64,000 nt of DNA from an uncultured Gemmatimonadaceae bacterium (lineage in GTDB: Bacteria; Gemmatimonadota; Gemmatimonadetes; Gemmatimonadales; Gemmatimonadaceae). Shown here piece after piece: positions 8,101 through 50,489 of this stretch (positions within the stretch are counted from its first letter, which is position 1; each line of letters begins with the position of its first letter). The stretch lies in the NCBI GenBank assembly GCA_963724885.1, contig CAVRWG010000002.1, positions 114,150-178,149 of the forward strand, in the 5' to 3' direction. A program made the translations under genes and the position numbers. The notes under the pieces are model-generated. The model was given only the letters and a program-made list of their open reading frames with translations. It did not search any database and was not told where the DNA came from.

Positions 8101-8693
8101 CGGATGGACTCCAGCTGGGCCACCGCGAGCACGTAGCCGGGCCACGGAGCCGTCAGCCTGGTGGCGGCGCGGAACCGCGCGCCCAGGCAGTGAACGCCGC
8201 GGACGTCGCCATCGTCGATCTCCAGCTCGAGCTCGTGAAAACCGACGCTGGAATCCAGTTCCAGCGCCTTCCACGCCGCTTCCTTCATCGCCCACAGCAC
8301 CGCGGCCGCGATGGACCCGGCGGAGCGGCGCTCGCGGGCGGTGAGGAAGAAGCGCTCGCGGGCCGGATCGATCGCTTCCAGGTTCTCGAGATCGATGCCG
8401 ATGTGCGATCCATCGGTCGCGGCGACCGCAGCCGCGAGTCCGTCGCGATGCGTCAGCGAGAGGGCGACTCTGCGACGCGCGGAACCCTCTCCGACGAGGT
8501 GCGCCAGGGGTGCGCGGTTGGCGCGGCGCTGAACCTCGATGGTTCCGCGGTCGCCGACGAGTTTACGAATGGCGCGATGGGCCGCGATGCGCGACGCGAC
8601 GAGCTCTGCGTCGGGCCTGAGGCCATCCGCCGACGGCAACTCCGCGACGGTCGCGAGCGCGACCACTGGATGACCACTGAATTGAGCCGGCAT
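8097..8693 (-). CDS. 4'-phosphopantetheinyl transferase (Sfp/AcpT type)
   Basis: HIGIDLENLEAI and WAMKEAAWKAL motifs. Likely start MPAQFSGHPV preceded by a gaggtgg RBS-like sequence. The stop overlaps the KASIII-like start. Confidence 0.6.
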   Translation of the reverse strand: MPAQFSGHPVVALATVAELPSADGLRPDAELVASRIAAHRAIRKLVGDRGTIEVQRRANRAPLAHLVGEGSARRRVALSLTHRDGLAAAVAATDGSHIGIDLENLEAIDPARERFFLTARERRSAGSIAAAVLWAMKEAAWKALELDSSVGFHELELEIDDGDVRGVHCLGARFRAATRLTAPWPGYVLAVAQLESIR

Positions 8694-29349: not shown

Positions 29350-29525
29350 GCTCGTTCTCGGCGCCGCGCGTGTCCTGCAAGAGACGCGCGGCGGTATGTT
29401 CTCGGCGCGCCTTCGGCGCGGTTGGAAGCTGCCATGCGCGAAGGAAAGCTGCTACCGGCGCGGAGCGCCGCCGAGAACGTACCGCCGGCCGTGTCTTAAC
29501 GTCACGGCCGGCGCTGAGAACGCCT
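29350..29525. repeat. Intergenic inverted-repeat array built from GTTCTCGGCG / CGCCGAGAAC units
   Basis: cgttctcggcgcc and atgttctcggcgcgcc are followed by gccgccgagaacgtaccgccggc, ccggcgctgagaacgcc and cggccgccgagaacatcgccggc, at least five copies in both orientations between convergent genes. Confidence 0.5.
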
Positions 29526-42292: not shown

Positions 42293-42997
42293 CTACGGGC
42301 GCGTGATCAGCGTGCGGTAGATCCAGCCGCTGCGCCCGCCGTCGTCGATTACGCGCACCCACTCGTCCGTATACGCGAAGCCGGTGAGGGCGTTGCCGCC
42401 TTCCACCGCGAACGCCACGTCGAAGTTGGTGCCCGGGCCTTCGCGCACGTTGCCGCGGTTCGCCACCTTGAGGCGGATGGGCAGCGCGAACGGCGTCTCG
42501 CCCGGCCGTGCCGCGCCGCGCTGCCCACTGGACAGCCGCGCGCGTCCCGCTGTCGCGGCGCTCTTCGCCTCGGCCGCGAGATACAGCGCGCCGCCGTAGT
42601 TCTGCTTGTTGAACTCGGCCGTGCTGTGCTGCACCAGCCGCTGCGTGCGGGCCAGTTCCGGGAGTTGGCGCGCGCCATCGCTGTTGCGCAGCGACTGCAA
42701 CGCCACCTCCGCCTCCGCCATCGCGGACGCGGCCTCGGCGCGGCTCGCCAGCGTCTCGAGCTTCGCCATCGTCCGCACTACTTCCTCGCGCGCGTCGCTC
42801 AGCCGCGTCTCCAGTTCGTCCACCTGCGCTTCCTTCTCGAGCAAACGCAACTCGAGCCGCGCCGCGCGCCGCTCCAGGTCCCGTACGGTCACGGTCTCGC
42901 GCGGGCCCCGCGATCGCGAAGTCCCTGAAGGATTCGTCGAAGCGCACGCGGACAGGGCCGCGGCGGCCAGGAACAGGACAGCAGCGCGCAAGGGCAT
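42293..42997 (-). CDS. Lipoprotein with coiled coil and C-terminal bacterial SH3 domain
   Basis: MPLRAAVLFLAAAALSACAS lipobox, a heptad-rich middle region, and a C-terminal SH3b-like segment VANRGNVREGPGTNFDVAFAVEGGNALTGFAYTDEWVRV. Confidence 0.5.
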   Translation of the reverse strand: MPLRAAVLFLAAAALSACASTNPSGTSRSRGPRETVTVRDLERRAARLELRLLEKEAQVDELETRLSDAREEVVRTMAKLETLASRAEAASAMAEAEVALQSLRNSDGARQLPELARTQRLVQHSTAEFNKQNYGGALYLAAEAKSAATAGRARLSSGQRGAARPGETPFALPIRLKVANRGNVREGPGTNFDVAFAVEGGNALTGFAYTDEWVRVIDDGGRSGWIYRTLITRP

Positions 42998-43149
42998 ACC
43001 GGACAGCGGCAGGAATGAACCTTCGGGAGTGATGGTCGTCGCACTCGGACAACCAGAATCCAGACGATCCGGGCTCATTGCCGCCACGCCCGGGACTCCC
43101 CCAGGGAGGGAGCCGCGCGATGGGAAGCCCCCAGATCTCCTTCCGACTG

Positions 43150-43330
43150 GCGTAAGGCTATCGCGGACCACGCGGAACACGCGGACAACTGACGCGGACC
43201 TTCAACAGCCGGTCCTTGCCTTGCGCGACTGACTCTCCCGCAAAAACCAACAGAAGCAGTTGCAGGTCCGCGTGTTTTTTCCGCGTCGTCCGCGTAGTCC
43301 GCGTTAACCGTACGCCACCGGGAGCTCTGA
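43150..43330. repeat. Intergenic palindromic repeat element, copy A (ACGCGGA x3-4 ... GCAGGTCCGCG ... TCCGCGT x3)
   Basis: ctatcgcggaccacgcggaacacgcggacaactgacgcggacc ... gcagttgcaggtccgcgtgttttttccgcgtcgtccgcgtagtccgcg. Shares architecture and motifs with copy B at 49160-49330. Confidence 0.55.
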
Positions 43331-43425
43331 AGAACGACCTTGAACCGCCGGCTCGCGATATCCGGTGGCAGAGCAGTATCATCAGGGGCCCTCCTTCACA
43401 CTTTCACACTCGGACAGGTGCAATC

Positions 43426-44886
43426 ATGGCAGCTGCTCGCGGCTCGGCGCTCGTCATCCCCTTCGTGCTCGTCCTGGCAACAACGGCGGCACGGCAGCTC
43501 GCGGCGCAGCGTCAAACCGGATACGCGTCCGGGTCGCTCACGGCGCACCAGCAGCTCACGCGCGACATCTACAAGCAGCTCGTCGAGATCAAGAGCACCG
43601 TGTACACCGGGAACATCACGCACGCGGCGGTCGCGATGGCGCAGCGGTTCCGCGAGGCGGGGATTCCCGAGGCGGACATCTTCGTCGGCGGCCCCAGGCC
43701 CGAGAAGCACAACGTGGTCGCCCGCGTGCGCGGCAGGCCGGGCTCCGCGCGCAAGCCGATCCTGCTGCTCGCGCACCTCGACGTCGTGGAGGCGCTCAAG
43801 GAGGACTGGTCGCCCGACCTCGACCCGTTCGTGTTCGTGGAGCGCGACGGCTACTACTACGGCCGCGGCACGTCGGACGACAAGGCGATGGCCGCGATCT
43901 TCGTCGCCAACGTCTACCGGATGAAGCAGGAGGGCTTCGTCCCCGATCGCGACATCATCATCGCGCTCACGGCGGACGAGGAGGGCGGCCCCGCGAACGG
44001 CGTGGACTGGCTGCTGAAGAACCACGCCGACAAGATGGATGCGGCCATCGTGCTCAACGAGGGCGGCGGCGGCACGCACAAGAGCGGCAAGCCGATGTAC
44101 AACTCGGTGCAGGCGACGGAGAAAGTGTTCGCCAACGTGGTGCTGCGCGCCACCAACCGCGGCGGACATTCGTCGGTGCCGCGTGCCGACAACGCGATCA
44201 CCGCGCTCTCCGAGGCGCTTGTGAAAGTCGGACGCCACAGCTTTCCGGTGCAGTTCAACGAAGTGACGCGCGAGTTCTTCAGCAAGACAGCGCTCATCGA
44301 GGCGCCGGCAATGGGTCGCGCGATGCGCGCGCTGGTCGCCAACCCGAACGACGCCGCCGCGCTCGCCGTCGTCGCCGCGGACCCGCGCTACAACTCGATG
44401 CTGCGCACCACGTGCGTCGCGACGCTGCTCAGGGGCGGCCACGCCGAGAACGCGCTGCCGCAGCTGGCGGAGGCCAACGTGAACTGCCGCATGTACCCCG
44501 GCGCCACGGCGGAGCAGACGCGCGCCGCGCTCGAGCGCGTCGTGAACGACACCAGCATCGCGGTCACCGCCTCGTTCGAGAGCCGGCCGCCGGAGCCGCC
44601 CACGCGGCTGCTGCCCGAGGTCATGGAGCCCATCGCGCGCATCACACGCGAGATGTTCGGCGACATTCCCGTCATCCCGACAATGTCCACCGGCGCCACG
44701 GACTCGCGCTACTTCAGGCAGCGCGGCATCCCGGCGTTCGGCGTTTCCGGACTGTTCAGCGATCCGGCGGTGGACGCGAGGGCGCACGGCCGCGACGAGC
44801 GCATGCGGGTCCAGTCGCTCTTCGAGGGACAGGAGTTTCTCTATCGACTGACCAGGGCACTGACGACCTCCAGCGTGACCCCATAG
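43426..44886 (+). CDS. M20-family peptidase (secreted), third paralog in the window
   Basis: Signal peptide, and LAHLDVV, GTSDDK, ADEEGG and NEGGGG motifs. Confidence 0.8.
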   Translation: MAAARGSALVIPFVLVLATTAARQLAAQRQTGYASGSLTAHQQLTRDIYKQLVEIKSTVYTGNITHAAVAMAQRFREAGIPEADIFVGGPRPEKHNVVARVRGRPGSARKPILLLAHLDVVEALKEDWSPDLDPFVFVERDGYYYGRGTSDDKAMAAIFVANVYRMKQEGFVPDRDIIIALTADEEGGPANGVDWLLKNHADKMDAAIVLNEGGGGTHKSGKPMYNSVQATEKVFANVVLRATNRGGHSSVPRADNAITALSEALVKVGRHSFPVQFNEVTREFFSKTALIEAPAMGRAMRALVANPNDAAALAVVAADPRYNSMLRTTCVATLLRGGHAENALPQLAEANVNCRMYPGATAEQTRAALERVVNDTSIAVTASFESRPPEPPTRLLPEVMEPIARITREMFGDIPVIPTMSTGATDSRYFRQRGIPAFGVSGLFSDPAVDARAHGRDERMRVQSLFEGQEFLYRLTRALTTSSVTP

Positions 44887-45092
44887 CCGAATGGCTCCAC
44901 GTCCGACGGGAATGGCTTCACAGTCCGAAGGGTTGATGCGGATTCAGGCCGATTCTGACCGATCACGCCGATAGAGAAGGACAAACGTGCCGGCCTTCAG
45001 CTCGCATGGGCTCCATCGGCGAGAATCGGCTCGATTCGGCGTCAATCCGCGTGGCCCTTCGGGCTGTGGGGCCTTTCGCTAACATTCAGAGC

Positions 45093-45749
45093 ATGAGGAA
45101 GCGAGATCGCCACGCTGAATCCGATCCCCGTCCCCCAGCGCCCGAAGCTCAGGGCGACGGCGAGCCGGTGTCCGACGTGCCTGATGCCGACGCGTCGAGC
45201 GCTCATGCGGCGTCAGACGACGAGACCAACGAGGCCGAGATGGACGCGAGCCCTCAGACGCGCGGCGGGGCACGTGTGGCGAACGCGGAGCCGATGCATG
45301 ACGAGCTGACGCGGCAGCTCAACGACCAGCGCGACCGGTACCTGCGGCTCGCCGCCGAGTACGACAACTATCGCAAGCGCACCATGAAGGAGCGCTCCGA
45401 GGCCGGCGCCCGCGGGCAGGCGGACCTCGTCACCAGGATGCTCGAAGCGATCGACGACCTCGCGCGGTTCGCCCATATCGATCCCGCGAGCACGGACGCG
45501 ATGACGCTGCACAAGGGCATCGAGATGGTCGAGCAGAAGATGCTCAAGTTGCTCGGAGGGGCGGGGCTCGAGGTCATCAACCCGATCGACCAGACGTTCG
45601 ATCCCACCGTGCACGAAGCCGTCACGACCGAGCCGGCGCTCTCTCCCGAAGACGACGACACCGTCGCGAGGGTCTTCCTGCCCGGGTACCGCTTCAACGG
45701 CCAGCTCCTGCGTCCGGCGCGCGTGGTCGTGAAGCAGTGGCAAGGCTGA
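45093..45749 (+). CDS. grpE: Nucleotide exchange factor GrpE
   Basis: LRLAAEYDNYRKRTMKE, the conserved GrpE core, with an acidic N-terminal tail. Confidence 0.85.
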   Translation: MRKRDRHAESDPRPPAPEAQGDGEPVSDVPDADASSAHAASDDETNEAEMDASPQTRGGARVANAEPMHDELTRQLNDQRDRYLRLAAEYDNYRKRTMKERSEAGARGQADLVTRMLEAIDDLARFAHIDPASTDAMTLHKGIEMVEQKMLKLLGGAGLEVINPIDQTFDPTVHEAVTTEPALSPEDDDTVARVFLPGYRFNGQLLRPARVVVKQWQG

Positions 45750-45764
45750 GCACGTACTGACTCT

Positions 45765-46889
45765 ATGGCGCAGAACAAGGACTACTACGCAGTCCTCGGC
45801 GTCTCCGCGTCCGCGTCCCAGGACGAGATCAAGAAGCAGTATCGCAGGCTCGCCGCGAAGCACCATCCCGACAAGAACCAGAACGACGCCAAGGCCGCGG
45901 AGCGCTTCAAAGAGATCTCCGAGGCGTACACCGTCGTCGGCGATCCGGAGAAGCGGAAGCAGTACGACGAGATGCGCCGCCTGGGCGCGTTCGGCGGGTT
46001 CGGTGGGGCGCCCCGGGGCACTCGTCAGCCGGGCGCGGGTGCGCCTCCCGGAGGCTTCGGCGGGGGCGGGTTCCGTTTCGAGGAGGTGGACCTCGGCGGG
46101 CTTGGAGGGCTCGGCGACATCTTCAGCTCGATGTTCGGCACCGGCGGGCGCAAGACCGCCCAGCCGGAGCGCGGCCAGGACGTGGAGGTCACGCTCGAAG
46201 TCCCGTTCCGAACCGCGATCCAGGGCGGCAAGGTCAACATCGATCTCGAGGTCAACGAGGAGTGCCCCGTCTGCAAGGGAAGCGGGGGCGCGCCGGGAGC
46301 CAAGATGCAGACGTGCCCGGAGTGCGGCGGGCGCGGCTCGATCTCGTTCGGCCAGGGCGGGTTCGCGGTGCAACGCCCATGTCCCCAGTGCCTGGGACGC
46401 GGGCAGATACCGTCGGAGCGCTGCAAGAACTGCGGCGGGGCTGGCGAGGTTCGCGCGCGCCGCAAGATCGCCGTCACCGTTCCTGAAGGCACGGACACGG
46501 GCACGAAGATCCGGCTGCGCGGGCAGGGCGGGCACGGCTCCCGCAGCGGCCCCCCTGGCGACCTGCTCATCAACTTCGTGGTGCAGCCGGACCGCTTCTA
46601 CAAGCGCGAGGGCCTCGACCTGGTCGCGACCGTTCCGATCAACATCGCGCAGGCCACGCTGGGCTCCAAGGTCAACGTGAAGACGATCGACGGCAAGAAG
46701 GTGTCGATCCGGATTCCGGCGGGAACCCCATCAGGCAAGCGCTTTCGCGTGCGCGGGCAGGGCGTGAAGAAGGGCGAGCAGCGCGGCGATCTCATCGTCG
46801 AAGTGGAGATCGTCGTTCCCGAGAAGCTCACCGAAGAGCAGGAAAAGATGATGCGGGAGTTCGCCGAGGCCGGGGGTCTCAAGTACTAG
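45765..46889 (+). CDS. dnaJ: Chaperone DnaJ (type I: J-domain, G/F region, CxxCxGxG zinc finger x4)
   Basis: KDYYAVLGV...HPDKN J-domain, and four CxxCxGxG repeats (CPVCKGSG, CPECGGRG, CPQCLGRG, CKNCGGAG). Confidence 0.85.
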   Translation: MAQNKDYYAVLGVSASASQDEIKKQYRRLAAKHHPDKNQNDAKAAERFKEISEAYTVVGDPEKRKQYDEMRRLGAFGGFGGAPRGTRQPGAGAPPGGFGGGGFRFEEVDLGGLGGLGDIFSSMFGTGGRKTAQPERGQDVEVTLEVPFRTAIQGGKVNIDLEVNEECPVCKGSGGAPGAKMQTCPECGGRGSISFGQGGFAVQRPCPQCLGRGQIPSERCKNCGGAGEVRARRKIAVTVPEGTDTGTKIRLRGQGGHGSRSGPPGDLLINFVVQPDRFYKREGLDLVATVPINIAQATLGSKVNVKTIDGKKVSIRIPAGTPSGKRFRVRGQGVKKGEQRGDLIVEVEIVVPEKLTEEQEKMMREFAEAGGLKY

Positions 46890-46908
46890 CTGCCCACGCC
46901 GGCGACGC

Positions 46909-47460
46909 TCAGGGCTGCAACTGAACCTTCAAGGTTGTCAGCAGCTGCTGCTCGAGTGCGCTCTTGGACGTGCACGGGCGGTATTCTCCCGCGAAGGCCA
47001 CTGGCTTGGCCAAGGCGCTGACCCGCGTGGCAATGGTGGTCTTGGTCGTGTCCGATCTGGATCGCTGGAGCGTCGTCAGCACGGAAAGCCGGACTTCGTA
47101 CGAGTCCGCGTTCGGCCCGATCTGCGTGGTACCGCAGTCGATCAGACGCATGAGCGGCGTCTTGCCCAGTCTGCGATAGAGCTTCAGGTCTTCGTTGCCG
47201 ATCGCGTTCTGCTCGGCATCGAAGGTGCCGATGGGGATCTCGAGGAGGCCGTACACGGCAGGGAGTGCCTTCCAGACACGGTCGATCGGGACCCACAGCG
47301 TGTCCACCTTTGCTCCGCCGGACGACGACATCCTCAACCCGCTCGCGGAATTTCCCTGGCCGATGGTCACGCTCTGGGGCTCGGGGCTCCCGGCACGGGC
47401 CCCGCCCTGACTGCCGCAGGCCGTGAGAACGACTACCGCGACCGCCAAGCTTCGTTGCAT
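46909..47460 (-). CDS. Lipoprotein, hypothetical
   Basis: MQRSLAVAVVVLTACGS lipobox. Confidence 0.4.
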   Translation of the reverse strand: MQRSLAVAVVVLTACGSQGGARAGSPEPQSVTIGQGNSASGLRMSSSGGAKVDTLWVPIDRVWKALPAVYGLLEIPIGTFDAEQNAIGNEDLKLYRRLGKTPLMRLIDCGTTQIGPNADSYEVRLSVLTTLQRSRSDTTKTTIATRVSALAKPVAFAGEYRPCTSKSALEQQLLTTLKVQLQP

Positions 47461-47544
47461 CGCCGATCCCTCCGCCATGACCCTTGGTCCGTTGTGGTGA
47501 CACCGCGAACGCGACATGACAATGCCTCACGGCCCTGCGGCCGG

Positions 47545-48048
47545 CTAGGGTTGGGGTGCCGTTCGCGCTTGCCGCAGGACTGCCTGGATGAACGGACCCT
47601 TGTCCGCGAGGTACCGCTTGCGGTCATTCGCGTGCGCGATGGCGAGCTGCCGCTTGAGGATCTCGTACTCCAGCATCACGGTCGCGTTGGTGCGAAGGTA
47701 GTCGCGAAAGAGCAGGTGGTCGCGCCAGAGGGCGCCCGACCAGCTCACCAAGTGGACGTGATGCGACCGGGGGTTTCCCCGGCGAAAGTAGTCGCGGCCG
47801 CGTATCCCGTTCGAGCCCAAATGCTCGTAGCCGATTTCCTTGAGCGCCTGGATGTACGCGTCGCGCCTCGCGCGCGGTGGCACGCCTGCGAGGATGTCGA
47901 TGACAGGTTTTGCGGACAGGCCGGGCACGGCGGTGCTTCCGACATGCTCCACGCGTATTTCGAGGTCGTCGCAGACGCTCCGGATGCGATCCGCCTCGAC
48001 ACGGAACTCCTCCGGCCACAGCGGGTCGTACGCGGCAAGATAGACCAT
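47545..48048 (-). CDS. GrpB-family protein (UPF0157, nucleotidyltransferase-like)
   Basis: YDPLWPEEF...VEHVGSTAVPGLSAKPVIDIL, the GrpB signature. Confidence 0.7.
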   Translation of the reverse strand: MVYLAAYDPLWPEEFRVEADRIRSVCDDLEIRVEHVGSTAVPGLSAKPVIDILAGVPPRARRDAYIQALKEIGYEHLGSNGIRGRDYFRRGNPRSHHVHLVSWSGALWRDHLLFRDYLRTNATVMLEYEILKRQLAIAHANDRKRYLADKGPFIQAVLRQARTAPQP

Positions 48049-48066
48049 GGCTTAGAATACTGACGC

Positions 48067-49146
48067 ATGCATCCTGCCTTCACAGCCCGGCTCGTAACGT
48101 TCGCGGCCGCCGCGACGCTCGTGGCATGCGCCTCCAGAGGCGCAGGCGCGCCCCAGGGCGGGCCGACGTGGCCGCAGCAGCTGGCCTTCGAGTTCGCACG
48201 CATGCCCGACACAGTCCCCACGCGCTGGGGCGGCCTGATCGGCGAATACGGTCAGGATACGACACGCCGCTGGTACGTGCTCGAGCGCGAGCGGCGCCTC
48301 TGGGTTCTGGACCACCGCGGCAACTACGTGCCGCTCGCCGAGCGATCGGACTCCGTATTCGACGCCCCGTTGTCCACGGCCGCGGTGTCGGGGGAGCTGC
48401 GCTTCCGCCGCGACGGGACAGGCCGGGCCGTCGTGATCCAGGCCGGCGATGTCACGATGCCGCGGCGGAACATCGAGCCGCCACCGGGAGCCACACAGCT
48501 TCGTATTACGCCAGTCAGGGCGATCGAGGACTTGAGACGGGAGGCGCTGGCGGCCACACCGCCGGCCGAGACCGGATCCTTCAAGCAGCCGGACCTTGTG
48601 GAAATCCGCGCGCTGGACAGCACGATCCGTTTGGACATCCGGTACGCGACCGAGAACAATTTTCTCGGTACGCGCCTCTACGAGCAGCCGCGGGCGTTCC
48701 TGCAGCGTCCCGCCGCTGAAGCGCTGGTCCGGGCGCATCGCGCGCTGTCCCGGCTCGGCTACGGGCTGCTGGTCCACGACACCTACCGGCCCTGGTACGT
48801 GACCAGGGTGTTCTGGGATGCGACGCCCGACAGCCTGCGCTGGCTCGTGGCGAATCCGGCGCAGGGATCGAAGCACAATCGGGGCGCGGCCGTGGACCTC
48901 ACGCTCTTCGATGTCGAAAGCGGCAAGGTCGTGGAGATGACGAGCACGTACGACGAGAGCACCGGCCGCGCCAACGCGACGTATCCGGGCGGTTCAGCGC
49001 TGCAACGCTGGCATCGCGGCATGCTGCGCCGGGCGCTCGAGCACGAGGGATTCGCGGTGACTCCGCTCGAGTGGTGGCACTTCGACTACAAGGACTGGAA
49101 GAGCTACCCGATCGGCAACCAGCCCTTCGATCGGCTGACGCCCTGA
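48067..49146 (+). CDS. D-alanyl-D-alanine dipeptidase (M15D, VanX/DdpX-like) lipoprotein with N-terminal extension
   Basis: HNRGAAVDLTL...EWWHF zinc-ligand pattern of VanX-family enzymes, and a lipobox LVACAS. Confidence 0.75.
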   Translation: MHPAFTARLVTFAAAATLVACASRGAGAPQGGPTWPQQLAFEFARMPDTVPTRWGGLIGEYGQDTTRRWYVLERERRLWVLDHRGNYVPLAERSDSVFDAPLSTAAVSGELRFRRDGTGRAVVIQAGDVTMPRRNIEPPPGATQLRITPVRAIEDLRREALAATPPAETGSFKQPDLVEIRALDSTIRLDIRYATENNFLGTRLYEQPRAFLQRPAAEALVRAHRALSRLGYGLLVHDTYRPWYVTRVFWDATPDSLRWLVANPAQGSKHNRGAAVDLTLFDVESGKVVEMTSTYDESTGRANATYPGGSALQRWHRGMLRRALEHEGFAVTPLEWWHFDYKDWKSYPIGNQPFDRLTP

Positions 49147-49159
49147 GCCTCAAAGGCCC

Positions 49160-49330
49160 CTAACCGCCGAAGTCTATCGCGGATGACGCGGAGCACGCGG
49201 AAACAACACGCGGACCAGCCACTGCTGCTATTGGTTCTTGGCGAGCGAGCCCAGTCGCGCGAGTGAACTAGCAAGTTTTTGCAGGTCCGCGGCAGCTGTC
49301 CGCGTGCTCCGTGTCGTCCGCGATCAGAGT
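49160..49330. repeat. Intergenic palindromic repeat element, copy B (ACGCGGA x3 ... GCAGGTCCGCG ... TCCGCGT-like x3)
   Basis: ctatcgcggatgacgcggagcacgcggaaacaacacgcggacc ... tttttgcaggtccgcggcagctgtccgcgtgctccgtgtcgtccgcg, lying between convergent genes. Confidence 0.55.
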
Positions 49331-49349
49331 CAGCGCGAGAAAGCCAGGT

Positions 49350-50489
49350 TCAGGCCGCGAGGACCGGAAGGAGCGAACGCTGCCCGCGAGCGGATTCGAT
49401 GACGCCGCCGCCCAGTACGCGCTCGCCGTCGTAGAACACGACGCTCTGGCCGGGCGTAATCGCCGCCACGGGCTCGTCGAGCGCCAGCTCGACCTCGCAA
49501 TCGTCGGCTCGAATGATCTCCGCCGCAACCGCGGGGGCACGGTGCCGGACCTGGACCTGCACGTGACGTCCTACGTCTGACGTTTCACGTCCCACGTTCG
49601 ACGTTGGAGGTCCTCCGTCGGATGCCAGCCAGTTGACCTCGCGAGCCACGAGCCCGCGCCCCAGCAGCTCCTCGCGCGGCCCGATCACGACGGCCCGGTC
49701 CGAGGGACGAATCGCGACGACGAACATCGGCTCGCGGAAGCCGCCGGGCACGCCGCGGCGCTGCCCGATCGTGAACCGCGCATATCCGTCGTGCTCACCG
49801 ATCACCCTGCCGCTCGACAGCACGAATGGTCCGGCGCTGAGCGCCGGCGCGTCGGGGCCCAGCTTCTTGCGGATGATCTTCGTGTGGTCGCCGTCGGGCA
49901 CGAAGCAGATGTCCTGGCTCTCGACCTTCTCGGCCACGACCTCGAGCCCGAGTCGGTGCGCCACCGCTCGCGTCTCGGCCTTCGTCTGAGCCCCGACCGG
50001 GAGCAGCATGCGCGACAGCACCGCCCGATCGATGCCCCACAGGAAATACGACTGGTCCTTGGAGCGGTCCACGCCGCGATGCAACTCGCTCGCGATCACG
50101 CGGGCGTAGTGGCCGGTGGCGATGAACCGCGCGTCGATGGAATCCGCCTTCTTCACCAGGTCGCGGAACTTGGTGAACGTGTTGCACCGCACACAGGGGA
50201 TCGGTGTGCGGCCGCGCGAGTATTCGTCCACGAAGTTGTCCACCACGTCGTGGCCGAACGCGCTCTCGAGATTGAGTACGTAGTGCGGCACGCCGAGCTG
50301 CTGGCACACGCGCCGCGCGTCGTTGATCGAGTCGAGCGAGCAGCACGGACGGTCGGGCACGTCCTCTCCGTAACAAAAGAGCTTCATCGTTGCGCCCACG
50401 ACGTCGTAGCCCTGCTCGACGAGCAGCGCCGCGGCGACGGACGAATCCACGCCACCGGACATCGCGACGAGAACGCGATCCTTAGTCAT
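49350..50489 (-). CDS. mnmA: tRNA-specific 2-thiouridylase MnmA
   Basis: VLVAMSGGVDSSV PP-loop and the catalytic cysteines in CCS.. and C..C contexts, across 379 aa. Confidence 0.85.
   Translation of the reverse strand: MTKDRVLVAMSGGVDSSVAAALLVEQGYDVVGATMKLFCYGEDVPDRPCCSLDSINDARRVCQQLGVPHYVLNLESAFGHDVVDNFVDEYSRGRTPIPCVRCNTFTKFRDLVKKADSIDARFIATGHYARVIASELHRGVDRSKDQSYFLWGIDRAVLSRMLLPVGAQTKAETRAVAHRLGLEVVAEKVESQDICFVPDGDHTKIIRKKLGPDAPALSAGPFVLSSGRVIGEHDGYARFTIGQRRGVPGGFREPMFVVAIRPSDRAVVIGPREELLGRGLVAREVNWLASDGGPPTSNVGRETSDVGRHVQVQVRHRAPAVAAEIIRADDCEVELALDEPVAAITPGQSVVFYDGERVLGGGVIESARGQRSLLPVLAA

Follow-up and report, generated by a model that had tools for sequence, protein, structure and literature searches.

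Two intergenic array hairpins of a Gemmatimonadaceae bacterium as probable ORF-less members of a cassette family that carries GxxExxY nuclease genes

Introduction

The 64-kb stretch of DNA analysed here, referred to below as the window, comes from an uncultured Gemmatimonadaceae bacterium and contains two palindromic elements, c1 and c2, which bracket a 5.8-kb block containing grpE and dnaJ. Their presence raises the question of what such elements are: binding sites for the neighbouring genes, structural modules, or members of a mobile family. A sequence-only reading of the window had described two palindromes of one layout, built from ACGCGGA and TCCGCGT arrays, and had preferred a dispersed REP/MITE-like element to a gene-specific operator.

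Results

Two array palindromes with long hairpin potential

The features of the two copies are as follows.

43148..43317, minus strand: copy c1, the whole inverted-repeat element, oriented by the centre that it has in common with c2 and other gene-less members
43158..43200, plus strand: c1 left arm, with CTAT, CGCGGA cores at 43162, 43171, 43180 and 43193, then CC
43199..43266, minus strand: c1 centre, 68 bp, conserved in part with the centres of c2 and of loci L241, L134b and L237
43265..43307, plus strand: c1 right arm, with GG, TCCGCG cores at 43267, 43280, 43289 and 43298, then TTAA
49147..49349, plus strand: copy c2 with its outer flanks, the entire intergenic gap between the stop codons of the M15 dipeptidase gene and mnmA, missing in relatives
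49174..49216, plus strand: c2 left arm, with CTAT, CGCGGA cores at 49178, 49187, 49196 and 49209, then CC
49215..49285, plus strand: c2 centre, 71 bp, with TTTTGCAGG as its 3' end
49284..49326, plus strand: c2 right arm, with TCCGCG at 49286, TCCGCG at 49299, TCCGTG at 49308 and TCCGCG at 49317, then AT

Both palindromes are real and have the layout that had been described, with four CGCGGA cores in one arm and a mirror-image array in the other. In c1, CTATCGCGGA lies at 43158-43167 and ACGCGGA recurs at 43170, 43179 and 43192; across the centre, GCAGGTCCGCG spans 43263-43273, with TCCGCGT units beginning at 43267, 43280, 43289 and 43298. The same CTATCGCGGA is found in c2 at 49174-49183, with ACGCGGA at 49186, 49195 and 49208, and GCAGGTCCGCG at 49282-49292 is followed by TCCGCGT (49299), TCCGTGT (49308) and TCCGCGA (49317). 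Each arm thus holds four units, at intervals of 9, 9 and 13 bp in left arms and of 13, 9 and 9 bp in right arms, around a centre of 65-70 bp. The sequence-only reading had placed the copies at 43150-43330 and 49160-49330, which is the right location, with the elements extending slightly beyond (49165-49335 for c2 without its full flanks). It was also correct that the copies have one layout; their orientation, however, is opposite, as c2 on the plus strand matches c1 on the minus strand over arm and centre (66 nt, 83%).

The c1 and c2 palindromes are not due to chance. When the window was scanned for the three-unit pattern CGCGGANNACGCGGANNACGCGGA with up to 3 mismatches allowed, all 5 occurrences fell within c1 and c2, where shuffles expect 0.11 in the 64 kb. 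The inverted arms of c1 (62 nt, 81%; 43148-43209 and 43256-43317) and of c2 (44 nt, 80%; 49176-49219 and 49281-49324) are the two longest local inverted repeats of the window. Structure prediction bore out the long imperfect hairpin proposed for each copy: DNA folding gave -52.9 kcal/mol for c1 (z -7.1) and a z of -6.7 for c2, and RNA folding of c2 with its flanks (49147..49349) gave -109.3 kcal/mol (z -8.2), none of which was equalled by any shuffle. Spacers agreed between arm and arm at 4.34 of 6 positions, compared with 2.64 ± 0.19 for shuffled partners (0/2000 shuffles reached the observed value). The arms co-vary, so the hairpin is kept. A U-tract terminator was looked for at the stems and none was found, and neither the window nor any of 18 related loci had an Rfam 15 match at gathering score, except for one 5S rRNA elsewhere.

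Gene context and gain of c2

As had been noted, one copy lies between divergent and the other between convergent genes. c1 is flanked by a gene for an SH3-domain lipoprotein (minus strand, start about 42994) and an M20 peptidase gene (ATG 43426), and c2 by the M15 dipeptidase gene, which ends at 49146, and mnmA, which ends at 49350. c2 sits exactly between these two convergent stop codons and fills nearly all of the 203-bp gap (49147-49349). No rRNA gene occurs in the window, and both copies lie between protein-coding genes.

At the same M15 dipeptidase/mnmA junction, four Gemmatimonadaceae relatives (DNA identity 84% or less) have a 21-bp overlap or a distance of 12, 0 or 1 bp. Since the two convergent genes abut or overlap in all four, comparison of the junctions indicates that c2 is an insertion gained in this lineage. 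No such arrays were found in 71 kb of syntenic relatives; copy number here is low (2 in the 64-kb window, 0 in the 71 kb). Altogether, two and probably three lineage-specific hairpin insertions surround the grpE-dnaJ block. At neither copy was a bordering direct repeat visible that would represent a target-site duplication. In the relatives, the empty sites are too diverged for exact ends to be fixed.

GxxExxY genes between arms of the same layout

In other contigs, arms matching those of the window flank members of the GxxExxY family (TIGR04256/PF13366, PDDEXK_3), whereas the window copies are without the gene and the 64 kb contains no GxxExxY ORF. GxxExxY proteins are PD-(D/E)XK nucleases of roughly 130 aa with a predicted Cas4-like fold; one search returned >5,000 homologues, and they are classed under 'function unknown' (PMC3424549). 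The centre of L134 encodes a 135-aa ORF with matches to TIGR04256 (1.9e-36) and PF13366 (9.8e-37). A GxxExxY ORF lies exactly between plus-strand and minus-strand arrays in L134, L128, L082 and L161, and in L168, whose 5' end is cut off, the 3' arm is present. All array pairs that enclose a centre of 388-432 bp with one intact ORF encode GxxExxY (L082, L128, L134, L161, L250, L256/L257 and L258); three others in the same size range (L009, L108 and L216) have short or low-complexity ORFs only. Among about 250 loci, no transposase was found between such arms, GxxExxY being the sole ORF found there.

The L256/L257 cassette has the same TATCGCGGA ends as c1 and c2, the same 9/9/13 spacing and the same TTGCAG ahead of the 3' arm. 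L256 is a metagenome contig from the sample set that also yielded the closest syntenic relatives. Between its arms and those of the window, identity is 77-88%, as high as among the window's own arms, and the left arm of c1 matches the L256 arms at 86-88% over 43 nt. The c2 centre end TTTTGCAGG resembles the TAG-TTGCAGTG that precedes the 3' arm of the L256 cassette; this TTGCAG stretch is the sole inner sequence common to the window copies and the cassette. When L256 RNA was folded, the arms paired around the ORF. Arms of the same layout type surround a GxxExxY gene in three more contigs (L134, L253 and L258). The L253 and L258 cassettes occupy the same locus, which points to long vertical persistence over frequent movement.

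An independent sample, chosen without reference to arrays, comprised 12 GxxExxY genes: eight plasmid-borne, three close homologues and one from a viral contig. Short flanking repeats were present in 12/12, and inverted arrays or single inverted units in 7/12. The repeats that flank some GxxExxY genes (Persicobacter, Fusobacteria, Prevotella) are direct, not inverted. In Gemmatirosa the gene adjoins a compact hairpin and is not inside it, and one Gemmatirosa plasmid has three GxxExxY-matching places. We found no account in the literature of nonamer arrays flanking GxxExxY, or of a hairpin cassette of the c1/c2 type.

Gene-less hairpins in other bacteria

In pattern scans, CGCGGA nonamer arrays turned up across many phyla, most of them forming hairpins without a gene, and hairpins of this kind adjoin unrelated genes in many phyla. 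Among array-selected loci, gene-less hairpins numbered 70 versus about 6 that bear a gene. Alignment revealed a common centre in c1 (minus strand), c2 (plus strand), L241, L134b and L237, and the gene-less form with this centre occurs in at least five different genomic contexts. This gene-less form is a lineage of its own. To see whether the c1 and c2 centres could descend from the ORF by internal deletion, they were aligned locally with four GxxExxY genes: they resembled the coding sequence neither significantly nor consistently, with positions that disagreed and z mostly below 3. Sharing with the cassettes is limited to the arms and the immediate inner flank.

Discussion

We define a full cassette as a GxxExxY ORF between two inverted arms, each of 2-4 tandem ~9-bp units with a C-R-C-R-G-A core. 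c1 and c2 have such arms; as their centres hold no GxxExxY ORF, they are filed as ORF-less derivatives or relatives and not as full cassettes. On balance we favour the view that c1 and c2 probably belong, as members lacking the ORF, to a hairpin-cassette family whose full form carries a GxxExxY gene between the same inverted CGCGGA-type arrays. The gene-less copies would then be non-autonomous and moved, now or formerly, in trans by the GxxExxY nuclease, which would recognise the repeated CGCGGA units, whether as duplex DNA or extruded as a hairpin or cruciform. A DNA-binding protein that recognises ACGCGGA arrays had been offered earlier as an alternative; it is plausible, and the nuclease that the same arms bracket elsewhere is its natural candidate. 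Once transcribed, the interrupted stem of 30-45 bp may act like a 23S rRNA intervening sequence (IVS), providing an RNase III-type processing site or a transcript boundary, and in the gene-bearing form it would sequester the purine-rich, Shine-Dalgarno-like 5' arm. In the window, c2 would then delimit two convergent genes at their 3' ends, and c1 would lie within the upstream region common to two divergent genes. Counting against this view are the low copy number, the absence of a GxxExxY gene from the 64 kb, the failure to find a target-site duplication, the dissimilarity of the c1 and c2 centres to GxxExxY coding sequence, the direct repeats beside some GxxExxY genes, the Gemmatirosa gene that lies outside its hairpin, and the persistence at one locus in L253 and L258.

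By analogy, the closest published architecture is that of the Coxiella 23S IVS, in which a stem-loop contains a small ORF preceded by tandem GACAGAT heptamers and is excised by RNase III (PMC4990558). IVSs, long suspected to be relics of mobile elements (PMC4990558), are known from Coxiella burnetii, Leptospira and Salmonella and are, like c1 and c2, small insertions whose complementary ends form a long stem. Their loop either is empty or holds a small ORF whose product, S23p, is a four-helix bundle of unknown function, and the cassettes are similar in this respect; the cassette family also resembles the 5' part of the Coxiella IVS in its tandem short repeats and its purine-rich, Shine-Dalgarno-like stretch. 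The two differ in that IVSs are located in defined 23S rRNA helices (9, 25 or 45) whereas c1 and c2 are intergenic, in that the IVS ORF is S23p and the full-length relatives of c1 and c2 carry the PD-(D/E)XK protein GxxExxY, and in that IVSs are demonstrated RNase III substrates, cleavage of c1 and c2 being putative.

This parallel also lends some weight to an unlikely alternative, that the elements are host-serving structural modules of RNA or DNA (serving, for instance, as RNase III sites, insulators, transcript boundaries or 3'-end stabilisers) selected as hairpins, with GxxExxY hitch-hiking or carried now and then as cargo, and not acting as the enzyme that moves them. In its favour are the high stability of the stems, the co-variation of their spacers between arms, the position of c2 exactly between the stop codons of two convergent genes, the large excess of gene-less over gene-bearing hairpins among array-selected loci, and the cleavage by RNase III of rRNA intervening sequences built in the same way (PMC4990558). 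However, four relatives manage without c2, the stems have neither a U-tract terminator nor an Rfam family match, and the spread of near-identical arm layouts to new sites and many phyla is left unexplained. Since a structural module would still require a transfer mechanism, this account complements membership of the cassette family more than it replaces it. The dispersal implied by a REP/MITE-like element was upheld by our data, although neither of the classes named fits. A classical MITE, derived by deletion from a DDE-type insertion sequence (IS), with terminal inverted repeats made of sub-repeats and moved by a conventional transposase encoded elsewhere, is improbable. Like IS-derived MITEs, c1 and c2 are small, intergenic and ORF-less, have terminal inverted repeats and show insertion polymorphism, and the centre of the gene-less lineage is distinct from the coding part of the full-length form and unrelated to it. 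No target-site duplication is visible at either copy, though, no parent IS was found, and the parent-like element encodes a Cas4-like nuclease and no recognised transposase.

A REP/REPIN mobilised by a RAYT, a Y1 HUH transposase, is very improbable. The two inverted halves with a spacer and the intergenic, dispersed placement are REPIN-like (PMC3116915, PMC3337134), and the cassettes share with the REPIN/RAYT system a protein gene flanked by inverted repeat copies, many scattered gene-less intergenic doublets and the capacity to form hairpins. The assignment is nevertheless contradicted on three counts. The GTAG/CGTC terminal tag that defines REP superfamilies, according to PMC3733652, is missing from the c1 and c2 ends, which read CTATCGCGGA, TCCGCGTTAA and TCCGCGAT; each half consists of four arrayed nonamers and not of a single palindrome of 20-40 bp; and the gene between the same arms encodes a PD-(D/E)XK enzyme in place of RAYT. 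The system further differs from REPIN/RAYT in that GxxExxY genes can be multicopy per replicon, as on the Gemmatirosa plasmid, and from REPINs in its low copy number in the window. There is just as little to recommend transcription-factor operators for neighbouring genes such as the grpE-dnaJ heat-shock cluster. A 7-bp motif does recur at fixed spacing on either side of the 5.8-kb block, and c1 does lie in a divergent promoter region, yet c2 lies between two 3' ends and is missing at the orthologous junction in four relatives, and the same arrays stand beside unrelated genes in many phyla. Gene order is the same in the syntenic relatives (71 kb) with no arrays anywhere in the block; the sites are thus not conserved upstream of orthologous genes, which contradicts an operator array and agrees with the earlier preference against one.

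Beyond the ORF-less membership of c1 and c2, we tentatively suggest, as somewhat less than an even prospect, that GxxExxY and its inverted nonamer arrays constitute an undescribed class of selfish hairpin cassette across many phyla, in which a minimal Cas4-like nuclease recognises tandem 9-bp units and spreads not only itself but also, in far greater numbers, ORF-less hairpins such as c1 and c2, with an architecture akin to rRNA intervening sequences. The practical yield for this window alone is modest. We found no explanation in the literature for the 'CGCGGA', 'CACGGA' and 'CACAGAGGA' intergenic nonamer palindromes that are common in many phyla; if true, the proposal would explain a common intergenic repeat of Gemmatimonadota, Acidobacteriota, Bacteroidota, Verrucomicrobiota, Planctomycetota, Poribacteria and other groups. 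If the model holds, it would account for operon structures that differ locally among close relatives, and annotation would improve because many spurious ORFs are called across arrays. The model, a small Cas4-like nuclease with cis-acting arms and a cloud of gene-less derivatives, is testable and parallels both RAYT/REPIN and rRNA intervening sequences. It would give a function to the very large GxxExxY/PDDEXK_3 family and may provide a compact sequence- or structure-specific nuclease.

Architecture and folding of c1 and c2

Reading both stretches confirmed the layout that the sequence-only reading had described for c1 (43148-43317) and c2 (49165-49335), the two palindromic intergenic elements of the window. 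Each opens with CTATCGCGGA followed by three ACGCGGA units, continues into a centre, 68 bp long in c1 and 71 bp in c2, whose last bases are GCAGG, and carries four TCCGCG(T)-type units to the right of that centre. Successive CGCGGA cores lie 9, 9 and 13 bp apart on the left and 13, 9 and 9 bp apart on the right, identically in both copies. The single 7-mer ACGCGGA was not enriched in the window (36 occurrences versus 29.5 expected), and a window scan for the three-unit array found five occurrences, all within c1 and c2, versus 0.11 expected. The two elements are oppositely oriented, with c2 on the plus strand matching c1 on the minus strand at 83% across 66 nt of arm and adjoining centre.

The inverted arms span 62 nt at 81% in c1 (43148-43209 / 43256-43317) and 44 nt at 80% in c2 (49176-49219 / 49281-49324), and no other local inverted repeat in the 64 kb is as long. 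The claim that each copy can form a long imperfect hairpin was borne out by single-strand folding, which gave z-scores of -7.1 and -6.7 for DNA and -8.2 for RNA; the RNA fold of c2 reached -109 kcal/mol. The third longest inverted repeat in the window, at 29379-29497 (44-nt arms, 75% complementary, 31 nt between), is not made up of CGCGGA units.

Searches of Rfam found nothing relevant, either at the gathering score across the whole window and 18 related loci or at an E-value threshold across 43050-49450. A tRNA/tmRNA scan gave no match, a promoter/terminator scan placed no site inside c1 or c2, and blastn of c2 against plasmids found no match. A weak Hammerhead_II match within the M20 peptidase gene (44493-44540, minus strand; 23.1 bits, gathering score 37, E 0.3) is almost certainly due to chance.

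Synteny supports insertion of c1 and c2 in this lineage

The gene map agrees with the earlier placement of c1 between divergent genes and c2 between convergent genes. The window is ~68% G+C, and the named homologues of its M20 peptidase (73-80% identity) all carry the label Gemmatimonadaceae.

Gene order around c1 and c2
GGDEF protein gene, first in the order
Likely start ~42994, minus strand, SH3-domain lipoprotein gene, between the GGDEF gene and c1
43148-43317, c1
ATG 43426, end 44886, M20 peptidase gene, right of c1
grpE and dnaJ, after the M20 peptidase gene
Minus strand, genes for a 202-aa protein with no named function and for GrpB, after dnaJ
End 49146, M15 D-Ala-D-Ala dipeptidase gene, just before c2
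49165-49335, c2
End 49350, minus strand, mnmA, after c2
Class-V aminotransferase gene, beyond mnmA

We compared the syntenic region in four relatives with M20 orthologues of 80-91% protein identity. The gap between the M15 dipeptidase gene and mnmA, 203 bp in the window and filled by c2, corresponds to a 21-bp overlap in L120, 0 bp in L123, 1 bp in L124 and a 12 bp gap in the P0003 contig; by blastn, the homology of L120 to the window breaks off at 49133 and restarts at 49352. The interval between the SH3 lipoprotein and M20 peptidase genes (42995-43425), 431 bp with c1, is a variable spot among the relatives. In L124 this interval is array-free and 147 bp long; in L122 it contains two M16 peptidase genes, and in L123 ~9 kb of genes, among them those for a TonB receptor, a Cu/Zn SOD and an S10 peptidase.

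No arrays of the c1/c2 kind were found in 71 kb of the syntenic relatives' sequence. This insertion polymorphism supports the view that c1 and c2 are insertions gained in this lineage rather than conserved regulatory sites, and, as the arrays are absent from the relatives, rules out an operator for the grpE-dnaJ block. A composite transposon, or an inversion between c1 and c2, was rejected, since relatives that have no elements show the same order and orientation of the intervening genes.

A third long hairpin insertion, built of ~10-bp CCGAT units, lies at 44914-45073 (RNA fold -103.5 kcal/mol, z -6.9), between the M20 stop (44886) and the true grpE ATG at 45094, the start being set by comparison with L120. 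Since the M20/grpE gap is just 26-34 bp in L120, L121 and L122, the 247-aa grpE ORF predicted from 45006 is an over-extension into this insertion.

Array hairpins occur across phyla

Scanning a representative genome collection with the pattern CGCGGANNACGCGGANNACGCGGA returned at least 119 loci. Among the matches listed were Gemmatimonadaceae, Acidobacteriota, Verrucomicrobiota, Planctomycetota, Poribacteria, Anaerolineae, Xanthomonas, Burkholderiales, Calditrichia and others, together with Chitinophagales and Saprospiraceae (36-49% G+C), Phocaeicola and Bacteroides. Many matches follow a common plan: three to four units, then a centre whose length varies (15-170 bp), then mirror-image units. 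Some are probably unrelated coding tandem repeats; the candidates, the Streptomyces matches and L035 (30 units on a single strand), were left out of use. The 3-nt spacers vary among elements (gaa, ata, gga, tta, tga) and are complementary within one element. Spacer agreement between the arms averaged 4.34 of 6 across 35 non-identical elements versus 2.64 ± 0.19 for shuffled partners, a value that none of 2000 shuffles equalled. The arms thus co-vary, indicating that the hairpin, or concerted evolution of its arms, is maintained.

A metagenome scan that demanded the inner ...ACGCGGACC gave no matches, and a relaxed pattern recovered the window-type layout (a TATCGCGGA start and 9/9/13 spacing) in L241, which is complete and gene-less, in L237, of which only the left half was seen, and in L134.

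Other array forms were also encountered. Six metagenome contigs (L130, L143, L146, L153, L154 and L233) carry long one-strand arrays of a 31-bp super-unit consisting of three CGCGGA cores spaced 9+9+13, as in the c1/c2 arms; in L130, L143 and L233 the array is followed by a conserved G+C-rich hairpin (ccccggggttgctg..cagcc.cggggttt). Seven orthologous contigs (L127, L133, L137, L148, L225, L231 and L236) have in common a solo array, CGCGGAtgaCGCGGAttaaaaaCGCGGA, at the same position beside a conserved gene start and without an inverted partner. At L091 (3944-4367), a CGCGGAT-type palindrome is nested within CACGGAT-type arrays, which gives the impression of one array hairpin inserted into another.

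Arms of the c1/c2 layout flank GxxExxY genes

The arms of L134 are 415 bp apart, and a single ORF occupies the interval: its ATG overlaps the last unit (CGCGGATGA...), and its stop codon is 7 bp ahead of the first TCCGCG. Its 135-aa product matches TIGR04256, "GxxExxY protein" (1.9e-36), and PF13366, PDDEXK_3 (9.8e-37). A profile search of all six-frame ORFs found seven GxxExxY genes in the fetched loci and none in the 64-kb window. A plus-strand and a minus-strand array enclose the gene exactly in L134, L128, L082 and L161, and in L168, which is cut at its 5' end, the 3' arm is visible. All array pairs with a 388-432 bp centre and one intact ORF inside encode GxxExxY; L009, L108 and L216, in the same size range, contain short or low-complexity ORFs only, and wider pairs are two separate elements flanking a host gene.

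We then looked up the closest homologues of the L134 protein regardless of repeats. Among them, the L256/L257 cassette has the 5' arm TATCGCGGA-caa-CGCGGA-aca-CACGGA-caaagga-CGCGGA and the 3' end TAG-TTGCAGTG-TCCGCG-tcggttt-TCCGCG-tgg-TCCGCG-tag-TCCGCGATA, which is the c1/c2 layout, including the TTGCAG ahead of the 3' arm. The arms of c1 and c2 are 77-88% identical to those of L256 over 43 nt, versus 72-88% to each other, so that these arms are common to the window's elements and to GxxExxY cassettes. The metagenome samples that yielded L256 belong to the set from which the closest syntenic relatives also come. In the RNA fold of the L256 cassette the arms close around the ORF; the 5' arm of the gene-bearing cassettes is purine-rich, and its Shine-Dalgarno-like GGAGGA strings adjoin the ATG.

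On its outer side the 3' arm is directly adjoined by tandem 21-22 bp repeats (GGCGCTGAG.GCCCCATC and relatives) in L256 (1715-1805), L257 (559-650) and L134 (8270-8340). A related motif, CTCAG(C/T)GGC, is located 7-10 bp outward from the first unit in L134, L237, L241 and L253. At one shared locus, flanked by genes for an acetyltransferase and a DEAD-box helicase, the diverged genomes of L253 (6001-6402) and L258 (6001-6423) each have a GxxExxY cassette, which suggests long vertical persistence; L258 has intact arms and L253 decayed ones.

In an alignment of 59 homologues, G31, E34, Y37 and D73 are invariant and E83 and K85 nearly so, and by sequence these residues form a complete PD-(D/E)XK nuclease active site. 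The AlphaFold model is confident (pLDDT 91.8, pTM 0.85), and no solved structure matching GxxExxY by sequence was found. PADLOC returned weak or marginal Cas4 and Cas4b matches (2e-4 and 1e-3), and PHROGs a single family of unknown function. PDDEXK_3 was listed as "Unknown" in a 2012 survey of the PD-(D/E)XK superfamily, which placed it in prokaryotes and viruses with multiple transfers (PMC3424549). A full-text search, of incomplete coverage so that an earlier description is possible, found no description of the flanking nonamer arrays, the gene-less derivatives or a function.

Gene-less hairpins form a lineage of their own

Five sequences can be aligned through the centre: c1 (minus strand), c2 (plus strand), L241, L134b (another element of the L134 contig, 8112-8295) and the L237 left half. 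They have blocks in common such as CTGCAA...TTG(G/T)TT.T...AG..C..TCGCGC. These five members of the gene-less lineage sit in five different genomic contexts. Among array-selected loci, gene-less hairpins number 70 versus ~6 that bear the gene.

We considered the centre as a remnant of the GxxExxY ORF, given a likeness in a MAFFT alignment to the GLLLNFG-coding region, and rejected it when this failed shuffle-controlled local alignment. Such alignments of the centre to GxxExxY genes gave inconsistent positions and mostly non-significant scores, so no claim of descent by internal deletion is made. What the gene-less and gene-bearing forms demonstrably have in common is limited to the arms and the TTGCAG flank.

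Repeats flank GxxExxY genes sampled without regard to repeats

A repeat-blind sample comprised eight plasmid or chromid GxxExxY genes, found by tblastn, and one gene from a viral contig. Short flanking repeats were present at all nine.

Flanking repeats in the repeat-blind sample
Bacteroides finegoldii: inverted arrays of CACAGAGGA
Bernardetia: inverted arrays of CACAGAGA
L259 (fetched locus): inverted arrays of the CGCGAAAAG type
Treponema: a single CACGGA unit on each side of the gene, inverted
Persicobacter, Fusobacteria, Prevotella: direct, not inverted, repeats on two sides
Gemmatirosa kalamazoonensis plasmid 1 (L260 20001-20475): compact 3+3 CGCGGA hairpin (69 bp), 25 bp downstream
Sphingomonas parapaucimobilis plasmid (L249, 482837-483265): CGCGAAGG-type repeats, upstream only

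Because every sampled gene has repeats, in differing arrangements, the association of GxxExxY with ~9-bp tandem flanking repeats is general and its arrangement is not uniform. In the cultured Gemmatimonadaceae species G. kalamazoonensis the hairpin is not around the GxxExxY gene and is the sole array in 40 kb; plasmid 1 has three GxxExxY matches. The L249 gene lies between fabD and fabG on the same strand, and the neighbours overlapping the fetched stretch in the other annotated plasmid loci that show one (L247, L248, L250, L251 and L252) are likewise on the strand of the GxxExxY gene.

Proposed working and alternative explanations

The sequence-only reading had favoured a dispersed REP/MITE-like element over a gene-specific operator. 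Its second half stands, as an operator array is contradicted by relatives that lack the sites. The likeness to the named element classes found less support: a REP/RAYT origin fails on the terminal tag, the arm structure and the associated gene, and a MITE derived from a DDE transposon is made unlikely by the lack of a visible target-site duplication and of a parent IS. A purely host-serving structural hairpin is possible, but it would still require a route to new sites.

We instead propose that the CGCGGA units are the cassette's cis-acting sites, which the GxxExxY nuclease would read, and that ORF-less copies such as c1 and c2 may be non-autonomous passengers. The relation of REPIN to RAYT, and of MITE to parent IS, offers a model for that of the ORF-less copies to the GxxExxY cassette. 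At the RNA level the arms may pair, and because the GGAGGA strings lie in the 5' arm beside the ATG, such pairing would mask these Shine-Dalgarno-like sequences. The two proposals are mutually compatible.

The nearest published architecture to the GxxExxY hairpin cassette is the 23S rRNA intervening sequence. That of Coxiella is a stem-loop in which a small ORF is preceded by a purine-rich stretch and by GACAGAT heptamers, three in tandem; it is cut by RNase III and has long been suspected to be a mobile-element relic (PMC4990558). By analogy, c1 or c2, if transcribed, could act as an RNase III-type site or a transcript boundary.

On this reading c1 and c2 would be non-autonomous hairpin repeats linked to the gene of a small enzyme, which is a known kind of element. 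The protein family is already catalogued; the system taken together stands a fair chance of being a new class of mobile element.
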